This document shows, piece by piece, positions 42,945 through 56,334 of a stretch of DNA of 64,000 nt (within the stretch, counting starts at the first letter, position 1; each line of letters begins with the position of its first letter). The translations under genes and the position numbers were made by a program. This DNA is from Candidatus Dojkabacteria bacterium (GTDB lineage: Bacteria; Patescibacteriota; Dojkabacteria; SC72; JAHDCA01), in assembly GCA_030583845.1 (NCBI GenBank), contig CP129478.1:971686-1035685 (forward strand). Reading direction: 5' to 3'. The notes beneath the pieces were generated by a model. That model made no database searches. It was not told where the DNA came from and worked only from the letters and a program-made list of their open reading frames with translations.

Positions 42945-43022
42945 GGTGGATGTAGCTCAATTGGTTAGAGCATCGGTTTGTGGAACCGAGGGTTGTGGGT
43001 TCAAGCCCCATCTTCCACCCCA
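42945..43022 (+). tRNA. tRNA-His (anticodon GTG) with genomically encoded G-1
   Basis: G-1 + GTGGATG acceptor, anticodon loop TTGTGGA, T-arm GTGGGTTCAAGCCCCAT, discriminator C73 pairing with G-1, and CCA. Confidence 0.85.
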
Positions 43023-43050
43023 TTCGTGACTCTTGGCAGAATTGAAGATA
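43015..43050. repeat. Direct repeat copy 1, overlapping the last 8 nt of tRNA-His; putative attL-like islet boundary
   Basis: 'ccaccccattcgtgactcttggcagaattgaagata' versus 47671-47702 'ccacattcgtgactcttagcgaattcgaatat' (13-mer exact core, about 26/32 overall). Confidence 0.5.
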
Positions 43051-43295
43051 GAATCAAACGGTTTTATCCAGTCATAACGCAGTTTTCCATCCTTGATAGA
43101 TAGGTTCTGAAGTGTAAGTGTGATAAGTTGTCGTTTCTGATCAGGTTCAGAACCCATAAATAGCTCATGACTTCTTGAAGCTAGGTTTAATAGCATTGCA
43201 GAGGTAATATAGTACTCTTCGTCTGCTTGGCTTATTAAGTTAAGCCTGTCTTCATTGTTTTTTCTGTTTAGTCCATTTAGCTCGTAAATTGTCAT
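43023..43295 (-). CDS. Hypothetical protein (islet-internal). The ORF-track model runs 66 nt into tRNA-His, so the true C-terminus is uncertain.
   Basis: 112-aa ORF whose last 22 codons are the tRNA-His complement. Confidence 0.25.
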
Positions 43296-43386
43296 ATTGG
43301 TCTGGAGTAGTACCCTTCACCCATTAACTTTTCTAATTCTTCTTTAATAGTTGATATGTTCATAGAATAAAATTTACCCCAAAATA

Positions 43387-45678
43387 CTAAAGTGATACCT
43401 CAACTTCTTGTCGGATAATCTGTTCAAGTTGAGCTGAGTTTTCTAAAATTGATTGTACATCAATATTCTCACTTGGGTCACTGACTGATAATATCCAACA
43501 ATAATTTTGCTCTATCGTTGTATCGTCATCTTCTGTTGTTAACTGAGTTATAACCTCAATCTTGCCTGCTGGAAATTTATTTCTAAAAGTCTCTGAATGT
43601 ATTAAGGAGAATTTCTTCCCATTTACTTTCTTTCTCCCTTTTAATTTGGATAAGTAAGATATTTTTTCTTCACCTGACGGTAAGACCTTAATTAAACGAA
43701 CATTCGCTTCAAGGCTGTGGCGATTATAACTATCTACATAAGCATTATTCACTGGTGGGTTGTAAACGCATGTAAATGTTATTTGAAGTTTTTTATCAAT
43801 TAATTCATTCGGGATATCTACTAAAACTCTATGCTTTTTGAAAGAACCTTTAATTGTGTCTGCATAGAGAATATTTACGTTTGATGAATTTGAAGATAAT
43901 AGCTTTGCAATATTGGGTGTACCCATACCTAAGAATTTTTGCATATTCCCCGTAGGCTGTTGTATAGGCATCTCAGCAGAGTGTATAAGCATCGCTTTTA
44001 TTGTATTAGCATAGTTATTTGTTAATTCTAGGTGCTCGTTGATGTCTGAATTATGTAAATAATCTAATGCAAATATGGCTTCTCTAGTGACTAAAGGTGT
44101 GCTGAAGCTTGTTCCGTTGTCTTTTTCAATTTTGTCCCCTACAATGCCCTCAACACCGTAGTTTCTCTTTGACTGTTCAAGATTATTATCCATACAAATC
44201 TCACCACCATGTGCGACTAACTCTGGCTTAATAATGTAATCTCTATTATGCCCTCCTCGACTGAATGGTGAAGGGGCACCATTCACTGGGCTCCACGTTG
44301 TATCATCAGTAATTTCAGCTACGGAACCGACTGTTAGCATATTAATTGCATCACTTGGGGATGCTATTTCAATACCATTTGAGCTGATAATTTCATCATA
44401 AGTCGAATATCCCAAATAGGAATCGTGGTTTCCTGAGCTTCCTATAAATAAGACATCATATTTTCTCGAATAATAATCTATTAATACAGTTATTGGATGT
44501 ATTTTCCTGCTCTCAATGGGTAATTTATTATTAATGGATAAATTATAGATTTTAACTTTTGGATATTTACCTAATGACTTTTCTATAACATCGGCTAAAG
44601 AAAATAAATCTTCTATTTCTGGTGCACCGTCAGCTCCTTGGTATAAAACCTGTAAGTTCAGAATTTGAGCAATTGGAGTTAGAGTTGAACTAGTTAATAG
44701 CGAAGTAATATTTCCCCCATATAATATTCTGCTTGCAACAAAAGTGCCGTGCGATGTATCTTCCAATTTGTGACTGGGAATATATTTCTCAGTATGAAAT
44801 ACTGATGAACTGATAGCTTTAGAATTAATACCACTATCTATCAAGCCGATTATTTCATCTGTTTGAGGGGGAGTTATGCTTATTGAGTTAATATCGATTG
44901 AAGGTAAGCTTCTACTTGCCGTCATGGCTCCAAGAGGGTATATGTATGCTATATCATCCAATTTTGCGTCAGAAAGCATAGCCTCGACTTGAGACTTCGT
45001 AATTGATGCTAAAAAGTACATTTGATTATTTATAAAAAATTTCGCATCTACTTTCTGCAAGTCGTCACTATCTAATTTTTGTGCAATTGCATTAAAAAGC
45101 ACATCGTATTGTTCAAAGGGTATATATGAAGCCATCTCAATAATACATTCGATTTTTTGATTAGGAATTTGGGATAATTTCTGAAACAAGTGCGTATCAA
45201 TTCTTTCTGTTATTTTCCTGGAATAAACGCTTGCACCTGTGAATGCATATACTTCTCTGAATGCATTTCTATCAATTGTTCTAACATCATCTAATTTCTC
45301 TTTCGCTTTAATGTATGATGCTTCCTCTAGTGATTTTTTCAGAGTTGTTAAGGACGGCAATTCAGCACTTATTATGATTTTATTATCGGTGGACGACGAT
45401 ACTATCCGAATATTATTCATATCCCACAGTCTATGAGGTTTGCTTGTTTTCGATGCTGCTTTTTCATCAAGATTAACTTCAATATACCTTCGACTGGTAA
45501 TGGATGGTTCAGATTCGATACTACTATTAACAGCACTTGTTATTGTGTTCAAACGGTTTATATATCCTTCCTCTGTTATATAGTCATCGTTTTCCCAATG
45601 AGTTTCCCAGAAATCGCTCCCGTGCGCTTGTTTCGCTTCTTTAGTTGCTTTGTTTTTTAAGGTGTAAAGAATTTCCAT
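43387..45678 (-). CDS. Cytoplasmic subtilisin-like (S8) serine peptidase; IetS-like candidate
   Basis: Catalytic triad motifs 'IGLIDSGIN' (Asp), 'HGTFVASRI' (His) and 'GTSFSTPLV' (Ser). No signal peptide, and a large N-terminal non-protease region of about 270 aa. Confidence 0.8.
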   Translation of the reverse strand: MEILYTLKNKATKEAKQAHGSDFWETHWENDDYITEEGYINRLNTITSAVNSSIESEPSITSRRYIEVNLDEKAASKTSKPHRLWDMNNIRIVSSSTDNKIIISAELPSLTTLKKSLEEASYIKAKEKLDDVRTIDRNAFREVYAFTGASVYSRKITERIDTHLFQKLSQIPNQKIECIIEMASYIPFEQYDVLFNAIAQKLDSDDLQKVDAKFFINNQMYFLASITKSQVEAMLSDAKLDDIAYIYPLGAMTASRSLPSIDINSISITPPQTDEIIGLIDSGINSKAISSSVFHTEKYIPSHKLEDTSHGTFVASRILYGGNITSLLTSSTLTPIAQILNLQVLYQGADGAPEIEDLFSLADVIEKSLGKYPKVKIYNLSINNKLPIESRKIHPITVLIDYYSRKYDVLFIGSSGNHDSYLGYSTYDEIISSNGIEIASPSDAINMLTVGSVAEITDDTTWSPVNGAPSPFSRGGHNRDYIIKPELVAHGGEICMDNNLEQSKRNYGVEGIVGDKIEKDNGTSFSTPLVTREAIFALDYLHNSDINEHLELTNNYANTIKAMLIHSAEMPIQQPTGNMQKFLGMGTPNIAKLLSSNSSNVNILYADTIKGSFKKHRVLVDIPNELIDKKLQITFTCVYNPPVNNAYVDSYNRHSLEANVRLIKVLPSGEEKISYLSKLKGRKKVNGKKFSLIHSETFRNKFPAGKIEVITQLTTEDDDTTIEQNYCWILSVSDPSENIDVQSILENSAQLEQIIRQEVEVSL

Positions 45679-45684
45679 GTTATC

Positions 45685-46800
45685 TTATGATTTTATATTA
45701 TCAATGAGAGTTGTGTATGGAATACCTGTGCTTTCGGATATTTGTTGTTTTGTAAATCCTAAATTTGTTAATTCTTGAGCTATTTTGTAAGCATCATTTT
45801 TGTTCAGTATATTTTCCATCTGCAATACTAAAAAGAGTTCTTTTAGCGAGATTATTGTAATATTTTCACTATTTTCTGCTAGTGCTAGTTTTCGTTTAAT
45901 TCTTAAAGAGATTTGTTGTATTGCTGAGCCACTTAGCCCATCGCTATATTTAACGAGTAGTTTAAGAGGTAAGTCGTTAGTACTATTCGATAAGTATGTT
46001 TGAAATAACTGTCGTCTCTCTGATATAAGTGGTAATTTTAACTCTAACCGTGTTTCAAATCTTCTCCAGAGTGCTTTATCTAAGAGTGAGTCGTGGTTTG
46101 TCGCTCCAATTAATATCGAGGATTTAGGGAAGTTGTCTATATTTTGTAGAAGTACTGTCACGACTCTTTTTAATTCTCCAAGCTCTGATGAATCATCTCT
46201 GTGTTTAGCTATTGTATCAATTTCATCCAGAAAGATTATAACATTCTCGTTTTTCGCTATTTCAAATATGGAACGAATATTCTTACCTGTTTTACCTAAG
46301 TACGAGGAAACTATTTCGTCTAATCTTACTAATATTAAAGGAAGATTTAACTCGTTAGCTATTGCATTCGCAAGAATTGTCTTTCCTGTGCCTGGTGCTC
46401 CATAAAGTAATATTGAATTAGAAGGGTAAATGTTCTCTTTTTCAAGCTTGTCACGTGCTTTCCACTCTTGAAGCCAGCTATTAATAACTTTGTGAGTAAA
46501 CTTGTCTAAAGTTACATTTGAAATAGAGATTTTTGGTGTGTTACGTTCATATAGATTCTCGTTTTTATCAATTATAATGTTGGCTCTTGTTTTTTGTCCT
46601 GAGAAACTATCTAGGAGCATCATTTCTGAGCGTATCTTTTCCAAACGTTTAACTATTTTATAATGGCCCTTTGCTTTCGCTTCTTCAATTTCCTGAATTA
46701 TCATTTTATTGACAATATTAATATTGTTCTCGGAAGCTGCTTTAATAAATTTTTCTACGAAATCAACTTTAAAGGACATTTCCGTATTTGCATAATACAT
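45685..46800 (-). CDS. AAA+ ATPase (classic AAA clade); IetA-like candidate
   Basis: 'LLYGAPGTGKT', 'IIFLDEIDTI' and 'ILIGATNHDSLLDKALWRRFE'. It is 7 nt upstream of, and co-oriented with, the S8 peptidase. Confidence 0.8.
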   Translation of the reverse strand: MYYANTEMSFKVDFVEKFIKAASENNINIVNKMIIQEIEEAKAKGHYKIVKRLEKIRSEMMLLDSFSGQKTRANIIIDKNENLYERNTPKISISNVTLDKFTHKVINSWLQEWKARDKLEKENIYPSNSILLYGAPGTGKTILANAIANELNLPLILVRLDEIVSSYLGKTGKNIRSIFEIAKNENVIIFLDEIDTIAKHRDDSSELGELKRVVTVLLQNIDNFPKSSILIGATNHDSLLDKALWRRFETRLELKLPLISERRQLFQTYLSNSTNDLPLKLLVKYSDGLSGSAIQQISLRIKRKLALAENSENITIISLKELFLVLQMENILNKNDAYKIAQELTNLGFTKQQISESTGIPYTTLIDNIKS

Positions 46801-46972
46801 TACTATATAAGTATAGGTTACAACTATAATTACGAATATGCAAGTATATATAATTCCGTAATAAGTCGTTAGCTGGCAAATTGTCGAAAATTGTTCGCGC
46901 TGAGATTGAAGCTTATCTTCAGGTTTAAGAATGCGTCACACAAAGCACCCCAATAAATACTCCATACTCACC

Positions 46973-47617
46973 TTAGCTGATAAATTCGACAATAACCTTA
47001 TTAACCTCTTCTAGAACTTTTGGTTGATACTGGTACTTATGCTCCATTTCAGGAATCTGACACCATTCTTTTGGCGCATTTGCTTTATCAAAGATCTTTC
47101 TGGTTACCGACATTGGAACCTTCTCATCTTCTTCACCAACAACAAATAAAACTGGGCAGGTAACATTCTGAATATAATCAATTGCATTATATTCTTGGGC
47201 ATCCTCAATAAACGAAAAGGGAATACTGAGCTCACCAAACTTTGAAGAAGTAACTTTGCGATAACCTGTTTCTTTCCACTCCTTATACTTTCCAGCTAGG
47301 TCATACTCACTTCCAACCTGATAAGGACTTACAATTAAGCCAAGTTTCTTCGGAGGGAATTCAGTTGCTAGGAGAGTTGCAATTATTCCTCCCATAGAGA
47401 ACCCTAGAATTATGAGTTCTTTGCTTTCTATCGCATTGAGAGTTGCTCTTGCAGTTGCGATGGTTTCTGAAAAACTATACTTGCTCATTTTATCAGGGAT
47501 GTGAGGCCATGCAATCTTAGTCACTATGTGACCAGTGGCTTGAAGCTCTTCTCCCAATTCTTTGAAAGTGACTTCTTCTGGATAACCGGTGAACCCCGGT
47601 ATAATTAATATGTCCAT
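46973..47617 (-). CDS. Alpha/beta-hydrolase (esterase) family protein
   Basis: Nucleophile elbow 'GFSMGG'. Confidence 0.65.
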   Translation of the reverse strand: MDILIIPGFTGYPEEVTFKELGEELQATGHIVTKIAWPHIPDKMSKYSFSETIATARATLNAIESKELIILGFSMGGIIATLLATEFPPKKLGLIVSPYQVGSEYDLAGKYKEWKETGYRKVTSSKFGELSIPFSFIEDAQEYNAIDYIQNVTCPVLFVVGEEDEKVPMSVTRKIFDKANAPKEWCQIPEMEHKYQYQPKVLEEVNKVIVEFIS

Positions 47618-47670
47618 AAACCAATTATAACTTCTAAAAGAAAATAGTTCCTAATCTCGTCAACTAACTG

Positions 47671-47702
47671 ACCACATTCGTGACTCTTAGCGAATTCGAA
47701 TA
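47671..47702. repeat. Direct repeat copy 2; putative attR-like islet boundary
   Basis: See copy 1. Confidence 0.5.
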
Positions 47703-47812
47703 TGGACGATAAATCTGCAGGTCAGAGTCTTGACCCTATGTGAGTCATAATTTCATCTAGCCTTGCTATCAAATCCTCCAATATCTATTCTAGCTTAGCT
47801 ATCTTCCAATCA

Positions 47813-48013
47813 CTACACACCCTCAAAAAGCGTCTCAACAAAGTTAAGAATCAAACCCATCGTTTTATCGGTAAGTGATCGCCTCTCGAGGATTTTGGGA
47901 GGGGTATTTAATGACTTAACAACCTCATCTCCAATATGCTTTCTCTCTGTAAATAGATATTCATCAATAATTTCTTGAACTTTAGATTCGTTAAGATCAT
48001 TTTCTGCACACAT
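47813..48013 (-). CDS. Small hypothetical protein
   Basis: 66-aa ORF; no motif. Confidence 0.3.
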   Translation of the reverse strand: MCAENDLNESKVQEIIDEYLFTERKHIGDEVVKSLNTPPKILERRSLTDKTMGLILNFVETLFEGV

Positions 48014-48230
48014 TTTCTTGAACTACCTGGAATTTCCGGGTAGTTGAGTTTCTATCTAACTCGCCTACTTTATATATGTTTTGAGAAGGCTCATAACTGT
48101 GTTAGTGTCTTTATCAAACAGTTTCTCTATATGTTTTTGGGTTAACCAAACGGTCTCATTTTCGAGATTAACCTCAACTGTTATTACACGGTCTGATCTT
48201 TGTAAAAGATGAGCTCTTTTTTTAAGAAAT

Positions 48231-49802
48231 TTATAAAAAGTACTGACTCATATATTGCCTCAATGAATCATCAACTATATATACATATGTTCCGTTAATA
48301 CCACGAGTGAGTAGAGTTGTATATATGTTCTTTATGTATGCTTCTAATTCTGCTGGATCAGAAATTGCTCTCTTTCCATTGAAGTCGAGGTATTTTGATT
48401 TATCAACAACCACTTTATGTTTGTTTTTGTCGTAAGAAATCTCGGGTCCAATTATTACACCTGCATAATTCAGATCATAGCCCTGAATCGTGTGAATACA
48501 CCCAATTTCATTTACTGCATTAGGTGAATTAACCCAATCTTCTGTGACACTATTCCACTTAAGCCGTGTGCCGTCAATTTCAATATCATAATCGATCTCA
48601 TTGTTTCCTTTGGTCTTCCATTCCCAGGCATATCCTGCGAGTATCCTTGAAAGACTGTAATCATAATCCTTTTCTTTGATTGCCAAGACCATATCTTTTA
48701 TATTATTAAAGAGTTTGAATTCATAGGTATAGAATTTATTTGGATACGGATTGGAGCAGTTTAAAATATCCCTTATATATTCTATATAGTCCATTCCTCC
48801 ATTGACTCTCATCTGAGAAGTTAATTTGTGGTTTACAAAGGAAATATTGTCTAATGCGTTATATTTAATGTCAGCTGGCTTTACTGACTGATACTTGTCA
48901 TAAAATAGCACTTGATGCTTTGATGATTGCAGGATCCAGTCTAATTGTGTAGCAGAGTCTTTCTCAAGTCCTAAAGATGCAGAGATCTTATCGAAATCTC
49001 TATAGTTTGTTAGGTTTACCCGTCTTTGTAGCCGATGGGCTTCGTCAACAATCAAGATATCGTACTTTTTCCTTACTACATCATTAGGACCAATTACCAT
49101 ACCTGGCGTTAGACCCTTAATATTTCTAAAGACGCGCTTAAGTGTTTTACGAAGCGATGTCATTGGAATAACAAGACCTATCTCTAAGTCTTTAGACCAT
49201 TTCTTCATGCTTAATGCTTTTACTAGATAGGTGGCTACAATTGTCTTCCCCGTTCCTGGCTCACCGGATACAAGATGGGGAATTCTTTCCCCAAATTTAA
49301 TACTGGACATTATCTTATCAACGACGTCTAGCTGATCTTGCGAGAGGGCTTTGTACGGAGAATATTTAAACAAATCACTATTTTGAATTTGAACAAGATC
49401 ATTATCGACTACTTTTAACTTTTGAAGTTCTTTCCAAATAGTCTCAAATTTAGCTTGATAACGCTCTCTATCGTAATAATTTGACTCCTGTATTCCAAAA
49501 TTAGCATTTTGTAATAGGTATTTACCATCGCCGGACATATATCTAATCAAGGAGGATTCTATGTCAAGCGTAGCAGACTTGTTATATTCATCATCTGCAA
49601 TTATATACATTGAGTTTAGCTTAGCCCTGTCTGCCTTCTCGAAATGCTGGCTAGCCCGTCTATATGCTGCTGTAGTTTCTCCAATATAGGCTTCCTTACC
49701 GTCTTCAAGAATATACACTATTGGCCAATTCTCACCGTATCGATAATCCCTTACATTTGTAAATTGATCCTTCCTGTAATTAAATTTCTTGATCTCGTAC
49801 AT
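48231..49802 (-). CDS. GIY-YIG nuclease domain fused to a DUF2075-type P-loop ATPase/helicase-like domain
   Basis: N-terminal 'PIVYILEDGKEAYIGETT...YRRASQH' (GIY-YIG). Walker A 'GEPGTGKT' and Walker B 'ILIVDEAHRLQ', with overall shape like DUF2075 proteins. Confidence 0.65.
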   Translation of the reverse strand: MYEIKKFNYRKDQFTNVRDYRYGENWPIVYILEDGKEAYIGETTAAYRRASQHFEKADRAKLNSMYIIADDEYNKSATLDIESSLIRYMSGDGKYLLQNANFGIQESNYYDRERYQAKFETIWKELQKLKVVDNDLVQIQNSDLFKYSPYKALSQDQLDVVDKIMSSIKFGERIPHLVSGEPGTGKTIVATYLVKALSMKKWSKDLEIGLVIPMTSLRKTLKRVFRNIKGLTPGMVIGPNDVVRKKYDILIVDEAHRLQRRVNLTNYRDFDKISASLGLEKDSATQLDWILQSSKHQVLFYDKYQSVKPADIKYNALDNISFVNHKLTSQMRVNGGMDYIEYIRDILNCSNPYPNKFYTYEFKLFNNIKDMVLAIKEKDYDYSLSRILAGYAWEWKTKGNNEIDYDIEIDGTRLKWNSVTEDWVNSPNAVNEIGCIHTIQGYDLNYAGVIIGPEISYDKNKHKVVVDKSKYLDFNGKRAISDPAELEAYIKNIYTTLLTRGINGTYVYIVDDSLRQYMSQYFL

Positions 49803-49804
49803 AG

Positions 49805-50131
49805 CTATTTCTTGAATTTGGTATATTTGGTGGCATTACCTTTAGCTTTCTCAACAGGATATTTTTCTTCACTTATTGCTAATTTATCTGAAGCTACTTT
49901 TTCAAGGTCAATATCTAGTGAATTTGCAAACAGAAGAAGATAGGTATAGAGGTCTGCTACTTCTGATTTAACATCCTCTAGGTCATATTTATCCGTCCAC
50001 TGGAAGCATTCTAATAACTCTCCTGCTTCGATAGATAATGATTTGGCAAGATTTTGCGGGGTATGGAACTGTTTCCAATCTCTTGCATCCCGAAAATTTA
50101 TGAGTCTTTCTAGTAATTTTGAGTGTTTCAT
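49805..50131 (-). CDS. MazG-like nucleoside triphosphate pyrophosphohydrolase (small, YpjD-like)
   Basis: 'LSIEAGELLECFQW' and 'EVADLYTYLLLFANSLDIDLE' (EExxE / ExxD helices of the MazG fold). Its stop is 3 nt from the next gene's start. Confidence 0.7.
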   Translation of the reverse strand: MKHSKLLERLINFRDARDWKQFHTPQNLAKSLSIEAGELLECFQWTDKYDLEDVKSEVADLYTYLLLFANSLDIDLEKVASDKLAISEEKYPVEKAKGNATKYTKFKK

Positions 50132-50266
50132 AAACTTAATCTTTTAATTATACTTTAACATTCTATCACTTGATGTTTAGGGGATACAGATACCCTCACA
50201 ACAATAGTTCAAACTCCAAGTTCAATTTTACTATTCTGTGTAGTTGTATTTCTGCCTGCCAGTTTA

Positions 50267-50770
50267 GTGGTCTTTTCACTCATAGGCCTTTATACTACCC
50301 CAATGCGAATCAACCTAAAAAAATACTACATAGAAATCCAATCGCCCACACTCTGCACCCTCATAGGCAGACTAAATGGCTTTGCCAACCCAGAAAGCGT
50401 CAAAGCTGGAGCATTTTACCCTTTCCTCTACCTCCGTTTTCCAGACCATCCAAATAACCCCACATGGATAAATCACGAGAAGATTCATTTTCGCCAGCAG
50501 TTGGAGTTACTTTTCATATTCTATTTCATCTTTATCGCGGCAGAGCGAATCTATTACAGATACTTCCGAAAATTATCACCATTAGACTCATATCTTGCAT
50601 CTGCATTTGAGCAGGAGTGCTACATCAATCAGAGTGATACACTGTATCTGAGTAGGCGAAGGCCGTATGCATTTCTGAAGTATATGCGTGAGAAGAGAAC
50701 TATTAGGTTTGTTGATAGAGAGGGGAATATAACGATCACAAATGACGAGCTTATCGCAATCAATAGTTAA
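50267..50770 (+). CDS. Hypothetical protein with an HExxH motif ('HEKIH'); its 3' end is copy 1 of an 89-bp repeat
   Basis: 167-aa ORF; C-terminal 'YLSRRRPYAFLKYMREKRTIRF' recurs at 58549-58637. Confidence 0.45.
   Translation: MVFSLIGLYTTPMRINLKKYYIEIQSPTLCTLIGRLNGFANPESVKAGAFYPFLYLRFPDHPNNPTWINHEKIHFRQQLELLFIFYFIFIAAERIYYRYFRKLSPLDSYLASAFEQECYINQSDTLYLSRRRPYAFLKYMREKRTIRFVDREGNITITNDELIAINS
50642..50730. repeat. 89-bp direct repeat, copy 1 (3' end of CDS 50267-50770)
   Basis: About 90% identical to 58549-58637, including a 31-nt exact block 'tatgcatttctgaagtatatgcgtgagaaga'. Confidence 0.85.
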
Positions 50771-50799
50771 AAATAACGATTAACAAGGTATAAGAATAA

Positions 50800-51282
50800 G
50801 TGAAAAAGTTCATGTTTGAGCCACTAATATATACATTTAAGAACTTCCCTTACAAATCCTGTCTAGGGCTGTCAGTATTTGAGTTTCATAAACTAACGTC
50901 CGATTTTCAGCTTTTTCAGGATGAAATTATAAAGTTGAAACCTACAATCGTTATAGGCGTAGCCAAAAGCCCTACAAACAAATCAAATTTCGAGAGTAGA
51001 GCAGTAAATCAATACAACCATGCTAAGAAGTTGGATGTAGGGGGCATTTATGAATATACTCTTGATTACCCAGAAAATGGATTTGGCAGTATTGGCATAA
51101 GCGCTGACTTTACCGATAGCTTTTGTAATTGGACAATGTATAGGATTTCGCAAATATTAGTTGGTACTGACACTAGATTACAGTTCATTCATATAGCAGA
51201 ACCAGATCTACCAGACATGGAAAAGTATCTGATGTATATCAGAGATAATAAGGTTCAATACTTATCTGTTTCAGATTCCTAA
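50800..51282 (+). CDS. Hypothetical protein
   Basis: 160-aa ORF. Confidence 0.45.
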   Translation: MKKFMFEPLIYTFKNFPYKSCLGLSVFEFHKLTSDFQLFQDEIIKLKPTIVIGVAKSPTNKSNFESRAVNQYNHAKKLDVGGIYEYTLDYPENGFGSIGISADFTDSFCNWTMYRISQILVGTDTRLQFIHIAEPDLPDMEKYLMYIRDNKVQYLSVSDS

Positions 51283-51358
51283 AATTTCGTTTGAAATGTA
51301 TAATTCACGAAATTCCTGCCCCATTTTCTTTTTACATAGCGATGAAATGCATAATTAA

Positions 51359-52048
51359 ATGAGTAAAGCATCCTTTGTAAGTGCACATAATAAAAAGGAT
51401 TGGCCATCTACCGGGAATAGATATCAACAGATCGAAGATGCAATCAGACTCAAGACAGTGTCAATTGTTGAGCTGATAGAACACAGAAAACGGAATGGAC
51501 TTCCGTCAAATGTGCTCGATCTCTTTGGACCGGGAGGTAACACAGGAAAAGCATTCATGCGAAAAGCGGACAGTTGGACCGGCATTAGATTAAATCCAGG
51601 TATAAATACACATGCAGAAGTGCTTGTAGCTGACCTATTTGATCCTGTGGCTAGAGATTCGATATGTTTGCCCGTTCAGCCAGATATTATCCTATGTAAT
51701 CCAATCGGTGCATTTGGTTTAGAAGGGATTAGAGGCCTAGACTATAAAGATTGGAGCATTTTCATGCAAGAATTTTATAGCTGGGCATATTCACACCTCT
51801 CATCAAATTACGGATTAATGTTTTCAGAATTAATGTCGTTTGTTCCAGATGGAATCTACTATAAAGCATGGCCCGAAATGTACAGGGACATGGTGAGCCA
51901 ATATATAACTGGATTGAGATCTCAAGGAGTTAATGTCACAGTACCAGCTTTAGAAACTGACACAGATGCGATGAGATCCATATTATTTGAGAAAGGTCCT
52001 GATTCGCCACACTGTTTACAGTTTGTTGAAATTGACTTGCAGGTATAA
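51359..52048 (+). CDS. Hypothetical protein with weak SAM-methyltransferase-like motifs
   Basis: 'VLDLFGPGGNTG' (motif I-like) and 'ILCNPIGAFG' (motif IV-like); tentative. Confidence 0.35.
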   Translation: MSKASFVSAHNKKDWPSTGNRYQQIEDAIRLKTVSIVELIEHRKRNGLPSNVLDLFGPGGNTGKAFMRKADSWTGIRLNPGINTHAEVLVADLFDPVARDSICLPVQPDIILCNPIGAFGLEGIRGLDYKDWSIFMQEFYSWAYSHLSSNYGLMFSELMSFVPDGIYYKAWPEMYRDMVSQYITGLRSQGVNVTVPALETDTDAMRSILFEKGPDSPHCLQFVEIDLQV

Positions 52049-52176
52049 TTTGGGGCTCACACTAGTCAAGAACCTAGCCATCATACAAACACCATTTCCC
52101 ATCCATTGAGACCCAACAATAATGTCCGTTTTACATCTCCCTGGGAATAAGTCTACCTCTTTCTTGCATACTTCTC

Positions 52177-52701
52177 CTACTTAATCCCATACTTACCATC
52201 AACAGAATCCCTAAACAAAGGCAGCCTTAACGGTTTGAAGCTTAATATCCCAAAAATTATGCTCTGCCCAAAAATAACTAGAAGAATTACCCACATAGGT
52301 AGTTCAAAATTAGTATTAATATACAAGAAATAGGAGGTTAGCTGACCTAAAATTATCGCAATTAGAAATACAGCTAAATCTAATACTAATACGTTCTTTC
52401 CTAGAATCCTTGGATAGATCCATTCTGCAACTAAAATAAAGAGGATCATGACATAAATCCCGATAATTTCAGAACTAAAAAATTTCAACGTAGACTGGTT
52501 TAATAAAATGTATTGAAAGATTGCAAAAATTAAAGCTGGATAAAAAGCGATCTTCAAATGTTCCCAAATACTTTCATTAACAGGACTAAATATAGCCATC
52601 CAAGGCCTTTTACCTCCATATTTATAAAGAAAGTGAAAAAATGAGCCTAAGATGAATATTATTGGGATTCCTATTAATTCAACAATAGCTATTTGATTCA
52701 T
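52177..52701 (-). CDS. Polytopic small membrane protein
   Basis: 174 aa, about 5 TM. Confidence 0.5.
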   Translation of the reverse strand: MNQIAIVELIGIPIIFILGSFFHFLYKYGGKRPWMAIFSPVNESIWEHLKIAFYPALIFAIFQYILLNQSTLKFFSSEIIGIYVMILFILVAEWIYPRILGKNVLVLDLAVFLIAIILGQLTSYFLYINTNFELPMWVILLVIFGQSIIFGILSFKPLRLPLFRDSVDGKYGIK

Positions 52702-52798
52702 GTGTTGTTCGTAATAGTGGAATAGCTAATTGTACACCATAACGTGGTATAATTACCTGGTGTCAGATTAAGTCAGTTTAAATTTAGCAAAGTCAGAA

Positions 52799-53164
52799 AT
52801 GTCAGAACAAAATAGATACTCTTCGCATTTTGTATGCGGAGTCATCAAATTCGACTACAAAGTCGCAGGTTTCAGAGATCTCATCACAGTCGCCCAGGAG
52901 TGGGCTAAAGACGAAAACTTCTACGAGCTAATCGTTCGTTCAGTCTCAGACAAAAATTTTGGACTTCAATTTACATATTATGCAGAGGGAACAGTAGGAG
53001 GCTGGTTTGGTGATACATACATCAAACCGCTTTTAGCGAAGTTCCCATCATATGCGGTAGATGTAGCCTATGATGGTCGTACCCGAGAGGAAGTAAAAGC
53101 GGAGGTACTAGACGGGGTAGTGGTTAGCAAATCATTGCCTATTGGGAAGGTGGTGAAGGAGTAG
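52799..53164 (+). CDS. Hypothetical protein
   Basis: 121-aa ORF. Confidence 0.45.
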   Translation: MSEQNRYSSHFVCGVIKFDYKVAGFRDLITVAQEWAKDENFYELIVRSVSDKNFGLQFTYYAEGTVGGWFGDTYIKPLLAKFPSYAVDVAYDGRTREEVKAEVLDGVVVSKSLPIGKVVKE

Positions 53165-53418
53165 GGTAGCATTTGTTGCCTAGCCGGCATCTCTGACACC
53201 AGCTGGCTAGGGAATGCTTAACTAACACAGATCTACTCTAGGATATCACTTATAGCTATTTTTCCGTGTAAGGTAAAAAACTATATTAGAATAACACTTG
53301 AGAATCACAGTTTACGTTATGACACAGATATACTACTGAAATACATAGAGGGAGTCGTAAGTGATTCTGAAAATATGGAATGTCGCAATTTATTTTAACG
53401 AGATAAACTAAAGTATTT

Positions 53419-54447
53419 ATGAAGATTATATTTTTTGTAGTTAAAGGATTGGAAGATATTGCAGAAAACGAACTGATGCAATTTGGCGTAGAGATAGAAA
53501 AGGTTGATACGAAATAAATTGTTGGTTCTTTCGCAGGTGACTTACATGATTTGTGCAATTTAAAAACTGTTGATGATTTAGCATTACTCTTTGATTCCTT
53601 TGAGGTAGGTAAGAATACGGTGATAGAAGATATTATAGAGCACGTCAGCAAAGCAAACATCAAACAATATATTCAAGTAATTGAGCAGCTAAGAGAGCTA
53701 TCAAGTAACTTCTCAATAACGATAAGCAAATACAAATCCACTGCAGATACATATGAACTGAAAGCGCAATTAGCCAGTCAACTAAGCTCTGAGCTAGATA
53801 TGCAGTTCACAGAGAAAGAGCATGAGAATTTTGACGTGCGAATAAGCATAGGGCAACAGAGGGTAGTCTTGGCTATACGCTTGTTTGCAAAACCTTTGCA
53901 TGATCGAGAATACGTTACACATAATTATTTAGGTTCATTAAAACCGACCATATCAGCATCGCTTTATAAAATGGCTTGCTCAAAAATAAAAGATAAAGAT
54001 AAAGTACAATTAGTTGATAATTTTTGCGGTAGTGGCACGATACTATGTGAGTCATTTCTACAAGGTGCAGAGGTCTCGGGTGGTGATGTGAGCCCGGAAG
54101 CTGTGAAGATGGCAGGGGAGAATTTGAAAGCTGTTGGAGCTAAAGACTTTACTCTTAAGATAGAATCTGCCTTTTCCACAGATTGGGATGAGGCGCAGTT
54201 TAACCTAGCTATTTCAAATCCACCATGGGGTGAACAACTTGAGGTTGCAAGTATGACTGAACTTTATGAAAAATCAGTAAGAGAGTATAAAAGAATATTA
54301 ACCGATGACGCTGTACTTTGCTTTATTGTCAAGAAACCTGACCTCCTAATAAAGTTTATAAAATCTCATTTCCCTAAGCATAGAATAGAAAGCCGCACTA
54401 TTAGTTTTAACGGCCAGCAGCCAACTATTGTTATTGCTTATCTATAA
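53419..54447 (+). pseudogene. THUMP/RlmL-like SAM-dependent RNA (m2G-type) methyltransferase interrupted by a single in-frame TAA at 53515-53517. The intact downstream ORF starts at TTG 53551.
   Basis: Upstream mini-ORF 'MKIIFFVVKGLEDIAENELMQFGVEIEKVDTK*' is in the same frame and continues 'IVGSFAGDLHDL...'. Downstream are 'DNFCGSGTIL' (motif I) and 'SNPPWG' (motif IV). Confidence 0.55.
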
Positions 54448-55402
54448 TATTTGTAAACTAATCGCTATGAAATATGACAACGCTACTATACGAGATAATA
54501 TTGTCAGGAGTATCGAAACAAATTACCAAATAGTTGTCGATACTGTGAGCTTTATCCCAATTGGTGAAGAAAGTTATTCCTACAAAATTAAAGGTAAGAA
54601 TAGTCAGACGTTTTTCGCCAAGTACTGTGCCAAGAAAGAAATCATTGCAAGTATTGATATAGTAAACGAGCTATTACTAAAATTAAGCAATTTTGAATTT
54701 GTAGTTCCTCCAATTCAAATAAGAGGTAAAACCTCATGCTCAGTATTGGAAGGTAAACTCTACCTGTTTCCATTTATTAATGGCACAAATATTAGCTTAG
54801 GTAATCATGATTGGGATAAAACCCTCTATGAAAGGATTTTCGACATAATGATTAAAATTCACAATTCAACTCACATTATTAATCTTAATTTACCTAAAGA
54901 AACATTTGAGAATAACTTTATTGATAGGCTTAATCTATTAGTGTCTGTAGTAGGCAACAATCAAAATTATGACAAACAAACAAACGAATTGTTGATTATG
55001 AACGAAACACTAATTCGTAAAATTATAAATCAACACACCTTATTAGGAGCGATGTATAAGAAAAAGAATTTGAGATTTGTTCTGACTCACGGTGATATTA
55101 CGGGTTTGAATATAATTAAAACAACAAAAGGGATGAAGTTAATTGATTGGGACGGTGCAATGTTTACTCCTTCCGAAAGAGACCTTAACTTTCTTTCATC
55201 AAATAAACATTTTTCAATAAAGAAATATATTACAGAAACTAAAAGTAAACATTACCCCGACTTATTAGACTACTACGGACAGCAATGGTCACTAAATAGT
55301 ATTTTAGAGAATTTCGAAGCGTTACTTTCTTCGAATATGACTAATATAAATAAAGATGACTGTATCGATGAAATTAACGAATATTTGTCATACTATAAAT
55401 AA
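54428..55402 (+). CDS. Aminoglycoside/choline-kinase-like phosphotransferase (APH fold)
   Basis: Catalytic 'LTHGDITGLN' (HGDxxxxN) and 'LIDWDGA' (DxD metal site). Confidence 0.6.
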   Translation: MLLLIYNICKLIAMKYDNATIRDNIVRSIETNYQIVVDTVSFIPIGEESYSYKIKGKNSQTFFAKYCAKKEIIASIDIVNELLLKLSNFEFVVPPIQIRGKTSCSVLEGKLYLFPFINGTNISLGNHDWDKTLYERIFDIMIKIHNSTHIINLNLPKETFENNFIDRLNLLVSVVGNNQNYDKQTNELLIMNETLIRKIINQHTLLGAMYKKKNLRFVLTHGDITGLNIIKTTKGMKLIDWDGAMFTPSERDLNFLSSNKHFSIKKYITETKSKHYPDLLDYYGQQWSLNSILENFEALLSSNMTNINKDDCIDEINEYLSYYK

Positions 55403-55563
55403 GTTTAGAGAGGGTGCTTAAGGAGGGATATGAAAATTACTTACATTAGGGTTGTTCCAGTCATAAAGCAGAAAAGCTATTTATAAACGACCTCCATTTT
55501 ATTGCACCTATGATTCTGATACTATTAGTAGCAGATATCTAAATTAATTGCCTTCCCCACTCA

Positions 55564-56334
55564 ATGAACGACAAAACCATGAAAGGACTTAACAGATCAA
55601 ATCTCGCACTATCAGCACTTCATTTCGCACAAGCATTAGCTGTGCTCTTTCTATCGAGTGCTGACCAAGGAGTCGTCCCGATTACGACCAATTACTTAAA
55701 ATTTGATCCAGCTACAAGCGCTTTAGCACCTGCAACTACCGAGCTATTTACAGTGAATCTGGCATGGTTTGTTGTTATATTTTTCTTGATCTGCTCATTA
55801 GCACATCTGAGTATTGCAACTGTATATCGCAAGAGATATGAATCAGACTTAAAGGTAGGGATAAACAAAGCAAGATGGATAGAGTACTCATTAAGCGCAA
55901 GCGTGATGATGCTGGCAATAAGCTTCCTGACCGGAATCTACGATATTTCCAGCCTAATAATGATCTTCACCCTTGTAGCTTTAATGAACCTGCTTGGACT
56001 TGCAATGGAGCTGATCAACAAAGGGAAGGAGAAGACCGACTGGTATACATACTGGCTGGGCTGTATAGCGGGGATTGTGCCCTGGATAGTGTTTGGGGTG
56101 TATGTCTTTGGCGCTAACAAGTATGGCGGTGGCAATATTCCTGACTTTGTGTACTGGATCTATGTCTCGATATTTATTTTCTTCAATTGCTTTGCGGTGA
56201 ATATGTTCTTGCAGTACAAGAAGATAGGGCCATGGAGGGATTATCTATACGGCGAGCGTGTTTATATGATTCTGAGTTTGGTAGCTAAGTCGCTACTCGC
56301 GTGGCAGGTGTTTGCTGGAGTTCTGAGACCTTAG
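55564..56334 (+). CDS. Heliorhodopsin
   Basis: 7-TM, 256 aa, with near-identical blocks to heliorhodopsin 48C12 as I recall it: 'RWIEYSLSASVMM', 'WLGCIAGIVPWI', 'FVYWIYVSIFIFFN', 'LQYKKIGPWRDYLYGERVYMILSLVAKSLLAWQVF'. The Schiff-base Lys lies in 'SLVAKS'. Confidence 0.85.
   Translation: MNDKTMKGLNRSNLALSALHFAQALAVLFLSSADQGVVPITTNYLKFDPATSALAPATTELFTVNLAWFVVIFFLICSLAHLSIATVYRKRYESDLKVGINKARWIEYSLSASVMMLAISFLTGIYDISSLIMIFTLVALMNLLGLAMELINKGKEKTDWYTYWLGCIAGIVPWIVFGVYVFGANKYGGGNIPDFVYWIYVSIFIFFNCFAVNMFLQYKKIGPWRDYLYGERVYMILSLVAKSLLAWQVFAGVLRP

Follow-up and report, generated by a model that had tools for sequence, protein, structure and literature searches.

Why should a small nucleotide pyrophosphohydrolase be encoded directly upstream of a nuclease-helicase? 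The question is raised by two adjoining genes in a stretch of 64,000 nucleotides (nt) from a Candidatus Dojkabacteria genome (assembly GCA_030583845.1, contig CP129478.1, positions 971,686 to 1,035,685), which we call the window and whose own numbering is used for its features. The first gene of the pair encodes a MazG-like protein of 108 amino acids (aa), and the second encodes a 523-aa protein that is predicted to join an N-terminal GIY-YIG nuclease domain to a DUF2075 helicase. A preliminary description of the window had put the two genes forward as a candidate defence or abortive-infection module. Here we determined that the pairing is a near-obligate co-occurrence across bacteria and archaea, beyond what chance would give. 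The pair is also mobile, and its most likely role, as a presumably co-transcribed cassette, is defence against invading DNA such as phage, a reading to which we give even odds.

Linkage of the two genes across bacteria and archaea

The pairing was sampled from both sides. An alignment of 24 helicase homologues led to 40 loci on contigs representing one genome per species, and a MazG alignment led to the best 80 metagenome loci, 79 of which hold a detectable MazG open reading frame (ORF). L-numbers label the sampled loci and P-numbers the listed homologues, and spacing figures come from longest-ORF calls. From the helicase side, a MazG-like ORF adjoins the helicase gene on the same strand in 34 of the 40 genome loci, one of them (L012) with a decayed copy, and two of the six loci without a MazG neighbour are truncated by contig ends. 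The hosts of these loci include Saccharibacteria, Pedobacter, Arthrobacter, Clavibacter, Kocuria, Nesterenkonia, Collinsella, Eggerthella, Solobacterium, Lachnospiraceae, Verrucomicrobia, and Pseudomonas. From the MazG side, a DUF2075 gene adjoins MazG in 58 of the 79 metagenome loci; 16 more are too short to tell, and five are informative negatives. These five form one near-identical cluster, and after de-replication 53 of the 54 informative clusters are paired. The preliminary description had left co-occurrence to be checked, and both counts show strong co-conservation of the two genes from phylum to phylum. The pair ranges over bacteria of the candidate phyla radiation (CPR), Bacteroidota, Actinomycetota, Bacillota, Verrucomicrobiota, Pseudomonas, and Archaea. 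A search for helicase homologues returned at least 7,900 protein clusters, and homologues at least 55% identical are found in other phyla and in Archaea.

The two genes are also tightly arranged. Their spacing is mostly -92 to +50 nt in the metagenome loci, and many of the genome loci have 4-nt overlaps. MazG usually lies upstream of the helicase and sometimes downstream, and this variable order points to a functional link rather than to read-through. In the GIY-YIG class, MazG distances and partner distances, compared pair by pair, correlate with r = 0.84, a value to which host phylogeny contributes. Plasmid records contain MazG in 99 cases and the helicase in 112, and MazG and helicase are adjacent in about 25 megaplasmids of the B. 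cereus group, where the coordinates were cross-checked. On a haloarchaeal plasmid the two genes of the pair lie 5 nt apart. Phage carriage appears different: the pair gave only 4 weak or short matches in 50,697 phage records, and a DUF2075 gene lies beside MazG in 2 of 49 MazG-bearing viral or prophage contigs, so the pair is not typically phage-borne. No third conserved gene was found among 112 flanking proteins from the 40 loci, of which the commonest Pfam families matched only 3 each.

Several individual loci are described here in their own right. In L012 (5549-5872), the MazG gene retains only its C-terminal third in frame. In L018 (3571-5214), the sole ORF called for the helicase match has 137 aa and lies at its C-terminal end, a sign that the gene may be interrupted. 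The sole informative MazG cluster without DUF2075 is the L118-L136 group from human-gut contigs. In L119 (1013-4994), for example, MazG comes after Y-family DNA polymerase-like and YolD-like genes, both recognized by eye only, and before a 220-aa protein without a Pfam match. An apparent MazG-DUF2075 fusion in Clavibacter (L013, a 1101-aa ORF) was rejected: the long frame stays open as an artefact of the high G+C content, and MazG occupies an ORF of its own in another frame.

Sequence and architecture of the two proteins

In the window, the MazG-like gene ends with a TAG stop at 49807-49805, which is followed by CT and then by the helicase ATG at 49802. The spacer is thus 2 nt; the adjacency given in the preliminary description stands, and its distance of 3 nt does not. 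A consensus scan of 47600-50500 for promoters and terminators found promoter-like sites to be no commoner, in fact fewer, than in shuffled controls, and no promoter can therefore be named in this interval. All catalytic motifs are intact in both genes.

The MazG-like protein matches Pfam PF12643 (48.5 bits, E 1e-12, cut-off 27) and PF03819 (26 bits, cut-off 22), both above threshold, as its first designation would lead one to expect. Among solved structures, its nearest relatives are 4qgp, a pyrophosphatase from an archaeon (E 9e-17), and DCTPP1/RS21-C6 of mammals (E 4e-14). Its EXXE(12-28)EXXD metal-binding motif is intact (E35-A-G-E38 and E57-V-A-D60), and E35, E38, E57, and D60 are nearly invariant among 25 aligned partner MazGs. 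In the HMMER alignment of the window MazG with RS21-C6, W19, W45, and Y64 correspond to W47, W73, and Y102 of the nucleotide pocket, and E35, E38, E57, and D60 correspond to E63, E66, E95, and D98 of the metal site. DCTPP1 prefers 5-modified dCTP. The window protein is a putative DCTPP1-like deoxynucleoside triphosphate (dNTP) pyrophosphohydrolase that would act on the nucleotide pool.

The 523-aa protein is 100% identical to P0001, which is annotated 'DUF2075 domain-containing protein [Candidatus Dojkabacteria bacterium]'. Over aa 177-511 it matches PF09848 (SLFN-g3_helicase, formerly DUF2075) with 209.5 bits (E 1.2e-61). In the alignment of 24 homologues, the Walker A residues G180, P182, G183, T184, G185, K186, and T187 are invariant, as are Walker B residues D253, E254, and H256, with A255 nearly so. 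Other residues of superfamily 1 (SF1) motifs that are invariant in this alignment are Q330, R332, T438, Q440, G441, and R500. The AlphaFold2 model of the protein has a predicted local distance difference test score (pLDDT) of 86.7, and its top Foldseek matches in the PDB are Dna2, Upf1, RecD2, RecD, SLFN11/14, nsp13, Dda, and Pif1 (E 5e-11 to 1e-7). The DUF2075-type Walker A/B ATPase of the preliminary description is thereby borne out.

The N-terminal domain required closer reading. On the full-length protein the GIY-YIG family PF01541 scores 20.1 bits, under its cut-off of 22.6, and on the N-terminal 135 aa alone it scores 23.5 bits, over that cut-off. Of 22 homologues of the 523-aa protein, 20 match PF01541, with a best E of 1.8e-8, and the catalytic positions Y30, Y39, G41, R49, E82, and N99 are invariant in 22-24 homologues down to 33% identity. 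The predicted secondary structure of the domain follows the beta-beta-alpha-beta-alpha order. Structural searches gave less, with no significant Foldseek match for the isolated domain and only marginal GIY-YIG matches in a sequence-profile search of the PDB. The GIY-YIG motif originally noticed thus aligns. In the profile searches suggested at the outset, MazG and PF09848 pass, and GIY-YIG passes on the N-terminal 135 aa but fails on the full-length protein.

MazG is found with helicases of two architectures. Class A, the type found in the window, combines GIY-YIG with DUF2075. In class B the N-terminus is a different one, about 260 aa long and with an 'ELKQW' motif; by eye it resembles PD-(D/E)xK, and its PADLOC PDC-S41 matches are weak. 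Some members of either class have a LexA-type Peptidase_S24 domain at the C-terminus. This domain is present in 28 of the 120 closest homologues among the matches listed (P0044-P0119) and was confirmed in L005 (5917-8100) and L032 (3890-6280); the GDSM (Ser) and Lys motifs of the fusions are visible in the alignment, together with a Cys-Gly site. In L142 (4325-4741), S24 is instead a separate gene between MazG and the helicase (E 4e-18). The S24 domains suggest that RecA-stimulated self-cleavage may serve as a switch in these versions. The 523-aa protein of the window has no S24 domain.

The MazG subfamily is not confined to DUF2075 partners. Viral and prophage contigs (IMG/VR, e.g. L043-L086) carry the same subfamily at 42-54% identity, and in 32 of the 49 viral-contig loci (e.g. 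L043 4944-6316, L053 4986-6311) MazG lies 0-34 nt upstream of a protein of about 325 aa. The C-terminal half of this partner matches PDB 6YEX (E 1.6e-13), which is VcaM4I, an EVE-HNH endonuclease dependent on 5-methylcytosine or 5-hydroxymethylcytosine. Its N-terminal half has no significant match to the EVE domain. Neither PMC7897488 nor PMC6765204 mentions a pyrophosphatase neighbour of EVE-HNH enzymes. Further loci provide links to readers of modified cytosine: an MrcB_N-HNH protein overlaps the MazG start in the viral contig L042, MrcB_N, MazG, and DUF2075 lie in one operon on a Priestia plasmid (L176), and on a Paenibacillus plasmid (L095) a class A helicase is preceded by an MrcB_N-HNH protein instead of MazG. 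PLD-SNF2-DUF3427 type IV enzymes lie upstream of MazG-DUF2075 in L025, L100, and L137, and the B. thuringiensis plasmid pIS56-233 has a VcaM4I-like HNH gene 0.5 kb upstream of the pair. MazG sequences tend to cluster by partner class, with frequent switches, and between-class identity (44-49%) is similar to the 48% found within class A. This makes MazG one family that serves three kinds of nuclease. For the window pair, the link to type IV enzymes is one of neighbourhood in other loci only.

Setting of the pair in the window and elsewhere

The pair changes its position between related genomes. Two other Dojkabacteria genomes carry it elsewhere on the chromosome, with helicases 78% and 68% identical to that of the window, between IF3/L35/L20 and the threonyl-tRNA synthetase gene in one site and between a methyltransferase gene and RNase HII/L19 in the other. 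Three different sites in three Dojkabacteria genomes indicate that the two genes relocate together and do not form a housekeeping locus of fixed position. A housekeeping MazG/YpjD at a constant chromosomal position, which the preliminary description had named as the finding that would speak against a module, is ruled out by these three neighbourhoods and by the plasmid copies.

In the window, the pair lies in a stretch of low G+C content (0.33-0.38 compared with about 0.44) that extends from about 43 to 56 kb, or about 13 kb. As first described, it stands just outside an islet at a tRNA-His gene (Table 1). This islet of 4.65 kb directly follows the tRNA, and a direct repeat of 36 nt, imperfect at 78% identity, flanks it on both sides (43017-43052 and 47671-47706). 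By their matches, IetS and IetA in the islet constitute a complete IetAS defence system, about 1.4 kb from the MazG/helicase pair. Between islet and pair, the 66-aa EcoR124_C-like ORF is probably what is left of a type I restriction-modification locus after decay. A RhuM-like fragment considered at 48075-48229 was discarded, as it has no Pfam support. On the other side of the pair, the three divergent ORFs could be further island cargo. Throughout the block (about 43000-56000), defence and non-defence genes are mixed.

Table 1. Positions of the gene pair, its predicted domains and motifs, and surrounding features in the window.
Feature	Position	Strand	Basis
MazG-like all-alpha NTP pyrophosphohydrolase, putative, 108 aa, DCTPP1/RS21-C6-like; first gene of pair	49805..50131	(-)	Pfam, PDB matches
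Predicted GIY-YIG nuclease + DUF2075/Schlafen-type SF1B helicase fusion, 523 aa; second gene of pair	48231..49802	(-)	ORF, Pfam
Predicted GIY-YIG nuclease domain, ~aa 27-101 (Y30, Y39-G41, R49, E82, N99)	49500..49724	(-)	Pfam on isolated N-domain
SF1B helicase / DUF2075 (SLFN-g3) core, ~aa 153-511	48270..49346	(-)	PF09848, Foldseek
Walker A / helicase motif I, GEPGTGKT, aa 180-187	49242..49265	(-)	alignment of homologues
Walker B / motif II, DEAH, aa 253-256	49035..49046	(-)	alignment of homologues
AT-rich intergenic region 5' of MazG gene, presumed operon promoter region	50132..50266	(-)	sequence reading
tRNA-His	42946-43022		
IetS	43387-45678	(-)	E 1e-76
IetA	45685-46800	(-)	E 1e-93
Alpha/beta hydrolase, islet member	46973-47617		
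66-aa ORF, type I restriction R-subunit C-terminal (EcoR124_C), last ~65 positions only	47813-48013	(-)	E 6.9e-5, 23.0 bits, cut-off 23.1
Three consecutive ORFs, 167/160/229 aa, divergent from MazG gene	50267-52048	(+)	no Pfam, PADLOC or NCBIfam match
DUF6512 membrane protein, low-GC block	52177-52701		
UPF0020-type methyltransferase, low-GC block	53551-54447		
APH-like kinase, low-GC block	54428-55402		
Full-length heliorhodopsin gene, edge of low-GC region	55564-56334	(+)	PF18761, E 1e-93

At other loci, the pair frequently resides in defence islands; neighbours are given here for individual loci and from a pooled scan of the flanks. AbiD stands beside the helicase in L009, PDC-S46 (E 2e-252) in L005, an HKD+Snf2 protein in L017, the MADS proteins mad3 and mad8 in L019, and a type IV restriction enzyme in L025. 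A DruE-like protein is found in L022, and L026 has the same layout by ORF size. The pooled flank scan returned C5 methyltransferases, cyclase models of the cyclic oligonucleotide-based antiphage signalling system (CBASS), TIR domains, and an MvaI/BcnI restriction endonuclease. A Priestia plasmid island with the pair contains an ABC-three-component system and type I restriction-modification genes. Together with the IetAS system of the window, these neighbours agree with the defence-type setting that was initially noted.

Two further arrangements touch on the pair. On the Priestia aryabhattai plasmid (L176, 4349-8255), the run of genes is MutT, an MrcB_N protein, MazG, and a class B DUF2075 gene, and the island also holds a metallo-beta-lactamase (MBL) hydrolase and a restriction endonuclease. 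A second NTP pyrophosphatase occurs near the pair in L094, where it is annotated as a (d)NTP pyrophosphohydrolase, and L142 has a weak, sub-threshold PRA-PH-like match.

Possible functions and comparison with known systems

Defence is the reading favoured by the tight linkage, the two-way co-occurrence, the co-inheritance, the mobility, the defence neighbours, and the shortlisting of such a pair by Millman et al. 2022. If the pair does defend its host, the 523-aa protein would be the effector, with its SF1B motor loading on and unwinding foreign DNA and its GIY-YIG domain cutting it. MazG would be the accessory, a DCTPP1-like dNTP pyrophosphohydrolase working on the nucleotide pool. In the version that we prefer, MazG would hydrolyse 5-methyl- or 5-hydroxymethyl-dCTP. 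This could starve phages that build modified DNA, or it could prevent the host chromosome from taking up modified nucleotides recovered from degraded DNA and thereby becoming a target. The defence function, this division of labour, and the specificity for modified cytosine are what we infer from the comparisons made here. The link to modified cytosine comes from the VcaM4I-like, MrcB_N, and DUF3427 neighbours, from the kinship with DCTPP1, and from the escape of phages from a validated Nhi-like protein through loss of their own DNA methylase. That MazG is a dedicated accessory of nucleases attacking base-modified DNA, where it would destroy 5-methyl- and 5-hydroxymethyl-dCTP, is a tentative proposal that we regard as somewhat unlikely. 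It is with the same doubt that we would list GIY-YIG- or PD-(D/E)xK-DUF2075 nuclease-helicases, VcaM4I-like HNH proteins, and McrB-N-HNH proteins as the nucleases that may share this accessory.

Several observations weigh against defence in general or against this version of it. The only homologous pair that has been tested, construct SG192, gave no defence against 26 phages. Helicase genes without MazG (L009, L095) or with a decayed MazG (L012) indicate that MazG is not strictly required. The MazG-like protein has no PADLOC or NCBIfam match, and PADLOC has no model for such a MazG; on the helicase, PADLOC finds weak partial Nhi/AbiO matches only. BLAST of the window protein against the validated Nhi-like SG141 aligns the P-loop only. 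No modified-base reader domain (SRA, EVE/PUA, MrcB_N, or DUF3427) was detected by Pfam in either window protein, and the presumed DCTPP1-like substrate preference is read from sequence similarity of about 30-40%. Many neighbours of the pair are, moreover, ordinary housekeeping genes.

One alternative retains defence and reverses the roles. The helicase-nuclease would sense infection and MazG would be the effector, draining the dNTP pool (dNTP to dNMP and pyrophosphate) until phage DNA replication is blocked in an abortive infection. We consider this distinctly unlikely, although the MazG active site is intact and DCTPP1-like, the pair is co-conserved and found in defence islands, and dNTP-depleting defence enzymes are established. 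The same MazG subfamily occurs with stand-alone HNH nucleases that need no sensor, which fits an accessory better than an effector. In addition, the 108-aa protein lacks a regulatory domain, the helicase's own intact nuclease is already a plausible effector, and toxicity or growth arrest is without evidence. What the comparisons favour over nucleotide depletion is an accessory role of MazG beside nucleases that target DNA, several of which depend on DNA modification. From the original proposal of a defence or abortive-infection module, defence keeps the backing of the island context and of co-conservation, but nothing specific speaks for 'abortive infection' or 'nucleotide depletion'. Improbable to about the same degree is a module for DNA damage or genome maintenance, in which the GIY-YIG-helicase would act on damaged DNA or stalled replication DNA, MazG would clean non-canonical dNTPs, and some versions would be RecA-switched. 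House-cleaning is the classical task of DCTPP1 and MazG proteins, and replication stress elicits a response from SLFN11. Repair would also suit the Y-family polymerase-like gene (by eye only) near the unpaired MazG of L119, the S24 fusions among the closest homologues listed, the separate S24 gene of L142, and the MutT gene of the Priestia operon; the fusions and the MutT neighbour count at the same time against defence. A RecA-sensing S24 domain would also fit the sensing of phage replication, however. A repair module also sits poorly with the patchy, mobile distribution on plasmids and islands with no fixed chromosomal position, with the recurrence of the pair beside restriction, Abi, Druantia-type, and IetAS genes, and with its defence-island enrichment in an independent screen (Millman et al. 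2022).

Far less probable still is a toxin-antidote or addiction pair, with a toxic nuclease-helicase neutralised by MazG, for example through removal of a nucleotide activator, and with stabilisation of the mobile element as the outcome. Tight coupling, a small gene before a large nuclease, and frequent residence on plasmids would all suit it, as would the failure to clone construct SG193. In E. coli, likewise, mazG lies downstream of the mazEF toxin-antitoxin genes. Against it, intact helicase genes occur without MazG (L009, L095) or with a decayed one (L012); MazG keeps its full set of catalytic residues and pairs with unrelated nucleases too, and SG192 was cloned with no toxicity reported. 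We assign scarcely any probability to a chance meeting of a housekeeping MazG/YpjD-type gene with an unrelated DUF2075 gene. Small MazG-like genes are indeed widespread, and the phage and prophage copies mostly lack DUF2075 (all but 2 of 49 loci), but the co-occurrence data refute chance, with adjacency in 34 of 40 loci and 53 of 54 clusters across phyla in a pair that moves as a unit.

The defence reading matters for several reasons. Fusions of a nuclease to a DUF2075 helicase are validated as single-gene defences, and the very widespread relative described here is almost always a two-gene system with a dNTP pyrophosphatase. A single shortlisting and a single test, the latter in another architecture, are on record for the MazG and DUF2075 package, which was then given up with no phenotype. 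A MazG shared with VcaM4I-like and McrB-N-type nucleases, together with the escape from Nhi-like protein, gives a concrete reason for interest in phages with modified cytosine. The pair is also among the few defence-like cassettes that recur in the tiny genomes of CPR bacteria (Dojkabacteria, Saccharibacteria). If the modified-cytosine version were true, it would explain how cells run modification-dependent nucleases safely, and pool sanitation as a self-protection arm would be a new principle. It would also join, in one ancestral immune module, the forebears of DCTPP1 and of the Schlafen helicases, two families that guard the human genome. If the hypothesis fails, a well-documented conserved gene pair remains.

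Each part of the pair has relatives among characterised proteins. The window MazG shares the EXXE...EXXD metal site and the aligned Trp/Trp/Tyr residues with DCTPP1/RS21-C6 and 4qgp, whereas DCTPP1 is a eukaryotic house-cleaning enzyme without a nuclease partner. Human SLFN11 and SLFN14 have a helicase core that falls in PF09848 and are among the top structural matches of the window protein. Human Schlafens differ in their N-terminal nuclease domain, which cuts tRNA and rRNA and is not GIY-YIG, and they have no linked MazG gene. Among defensive enzymes that deplete dNTPs, dCTP deaminase and dGTPase are established and act, like the MazG proposed here, on the deoxynucleotide pool during infection (Tal et al. 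2022). Both are of other chemistry and other families, and they are single-gene systems without a fused or linked nuclease-helicase. VcaM4I- and TspA15I-type EVE-HNH enzymes are connected to the window through its MazG subfamily, which directly precedes VcaM4I-like HNH proteins in 32 of the 49 loci on viral contigs, but the 523-aa protein has no EVE, PUA, or HNH domain. A 2019 paper on modification-dependent enzymes (PMC6765204) reported DUF2075 NTPases beside some type IV enzymes and mentioned GIY-YIG-DUF2075 fusions.

The closest counterpart of the pair as a whole is the candidate system 'Pyrophosphatase' (MazG-like + DUF2075) in Table S2 of Millman et al. 2022 (bioRxiv 10.1101/2022.05.11.491447), one of 45 candidates picked by defence-island enrichment. 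In full-text searches of the library of papers used here, no description of the pairing of MazG and DUF2075 came up, and it appeared only in this supplementary table. The statement in the preliminary description that the exact pairing is not a named system therefore holds in part, as the pair is unnamed but had already been shortlisted. Construct SG192 (Bacillus firmus LK28) consists of a 98-aa pyrophosphatase and a 643-aa DUF2075 protein and is marked 'x' under 'observed defense', and SG193 (B. thuringiensis Lr3/2) is marked 'Cloning failed'. As in the window, a MazG-like gene of about 100 aa adjoins a DUF2075 gene, and identity between the window MazG and the pyrophosphatase of the construct is 45% for SG193 and 43% for SG192. 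The SG192 DUF2075 protein is 54% identical to the class B protein of L025. Both constructs have the PD-(D/E)xK-like N-terminus of about 260 aa, whereas the window protein has GIY-YIG. The pair is a published but unvalidated candidate, and its GIY-YIG version lies outside the constructs of that study.

Closest to the 523-aa protein by layout are Nhi from Staphylococcus epidermidis (Bari et al. 2022) and Nhi-like from B. cereus SG141 (Millman et al. 2022), both validated single-gene anti-phage proteins. As in the window, an N-terminal nuclease is fused to a DUF2075 SF1B helicase in one polypeptide. Membership of the window protein in Nhi/Nhi-like was rejected by sequence, as the PADLOC Nhi model covers only aa 140-379 (E 1.7e-12). 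The nuclease of Nhi and Nhi-like is PD-(D/E)xK and that of the window protein is predicted to be GIY-YIG. Finally, Nhi and Nhi-like act alone without MazG, whereas a MazG gene adjoins the helicase of the pair in 34 of 40 genome loci and in 53 of 54 informative clusters.

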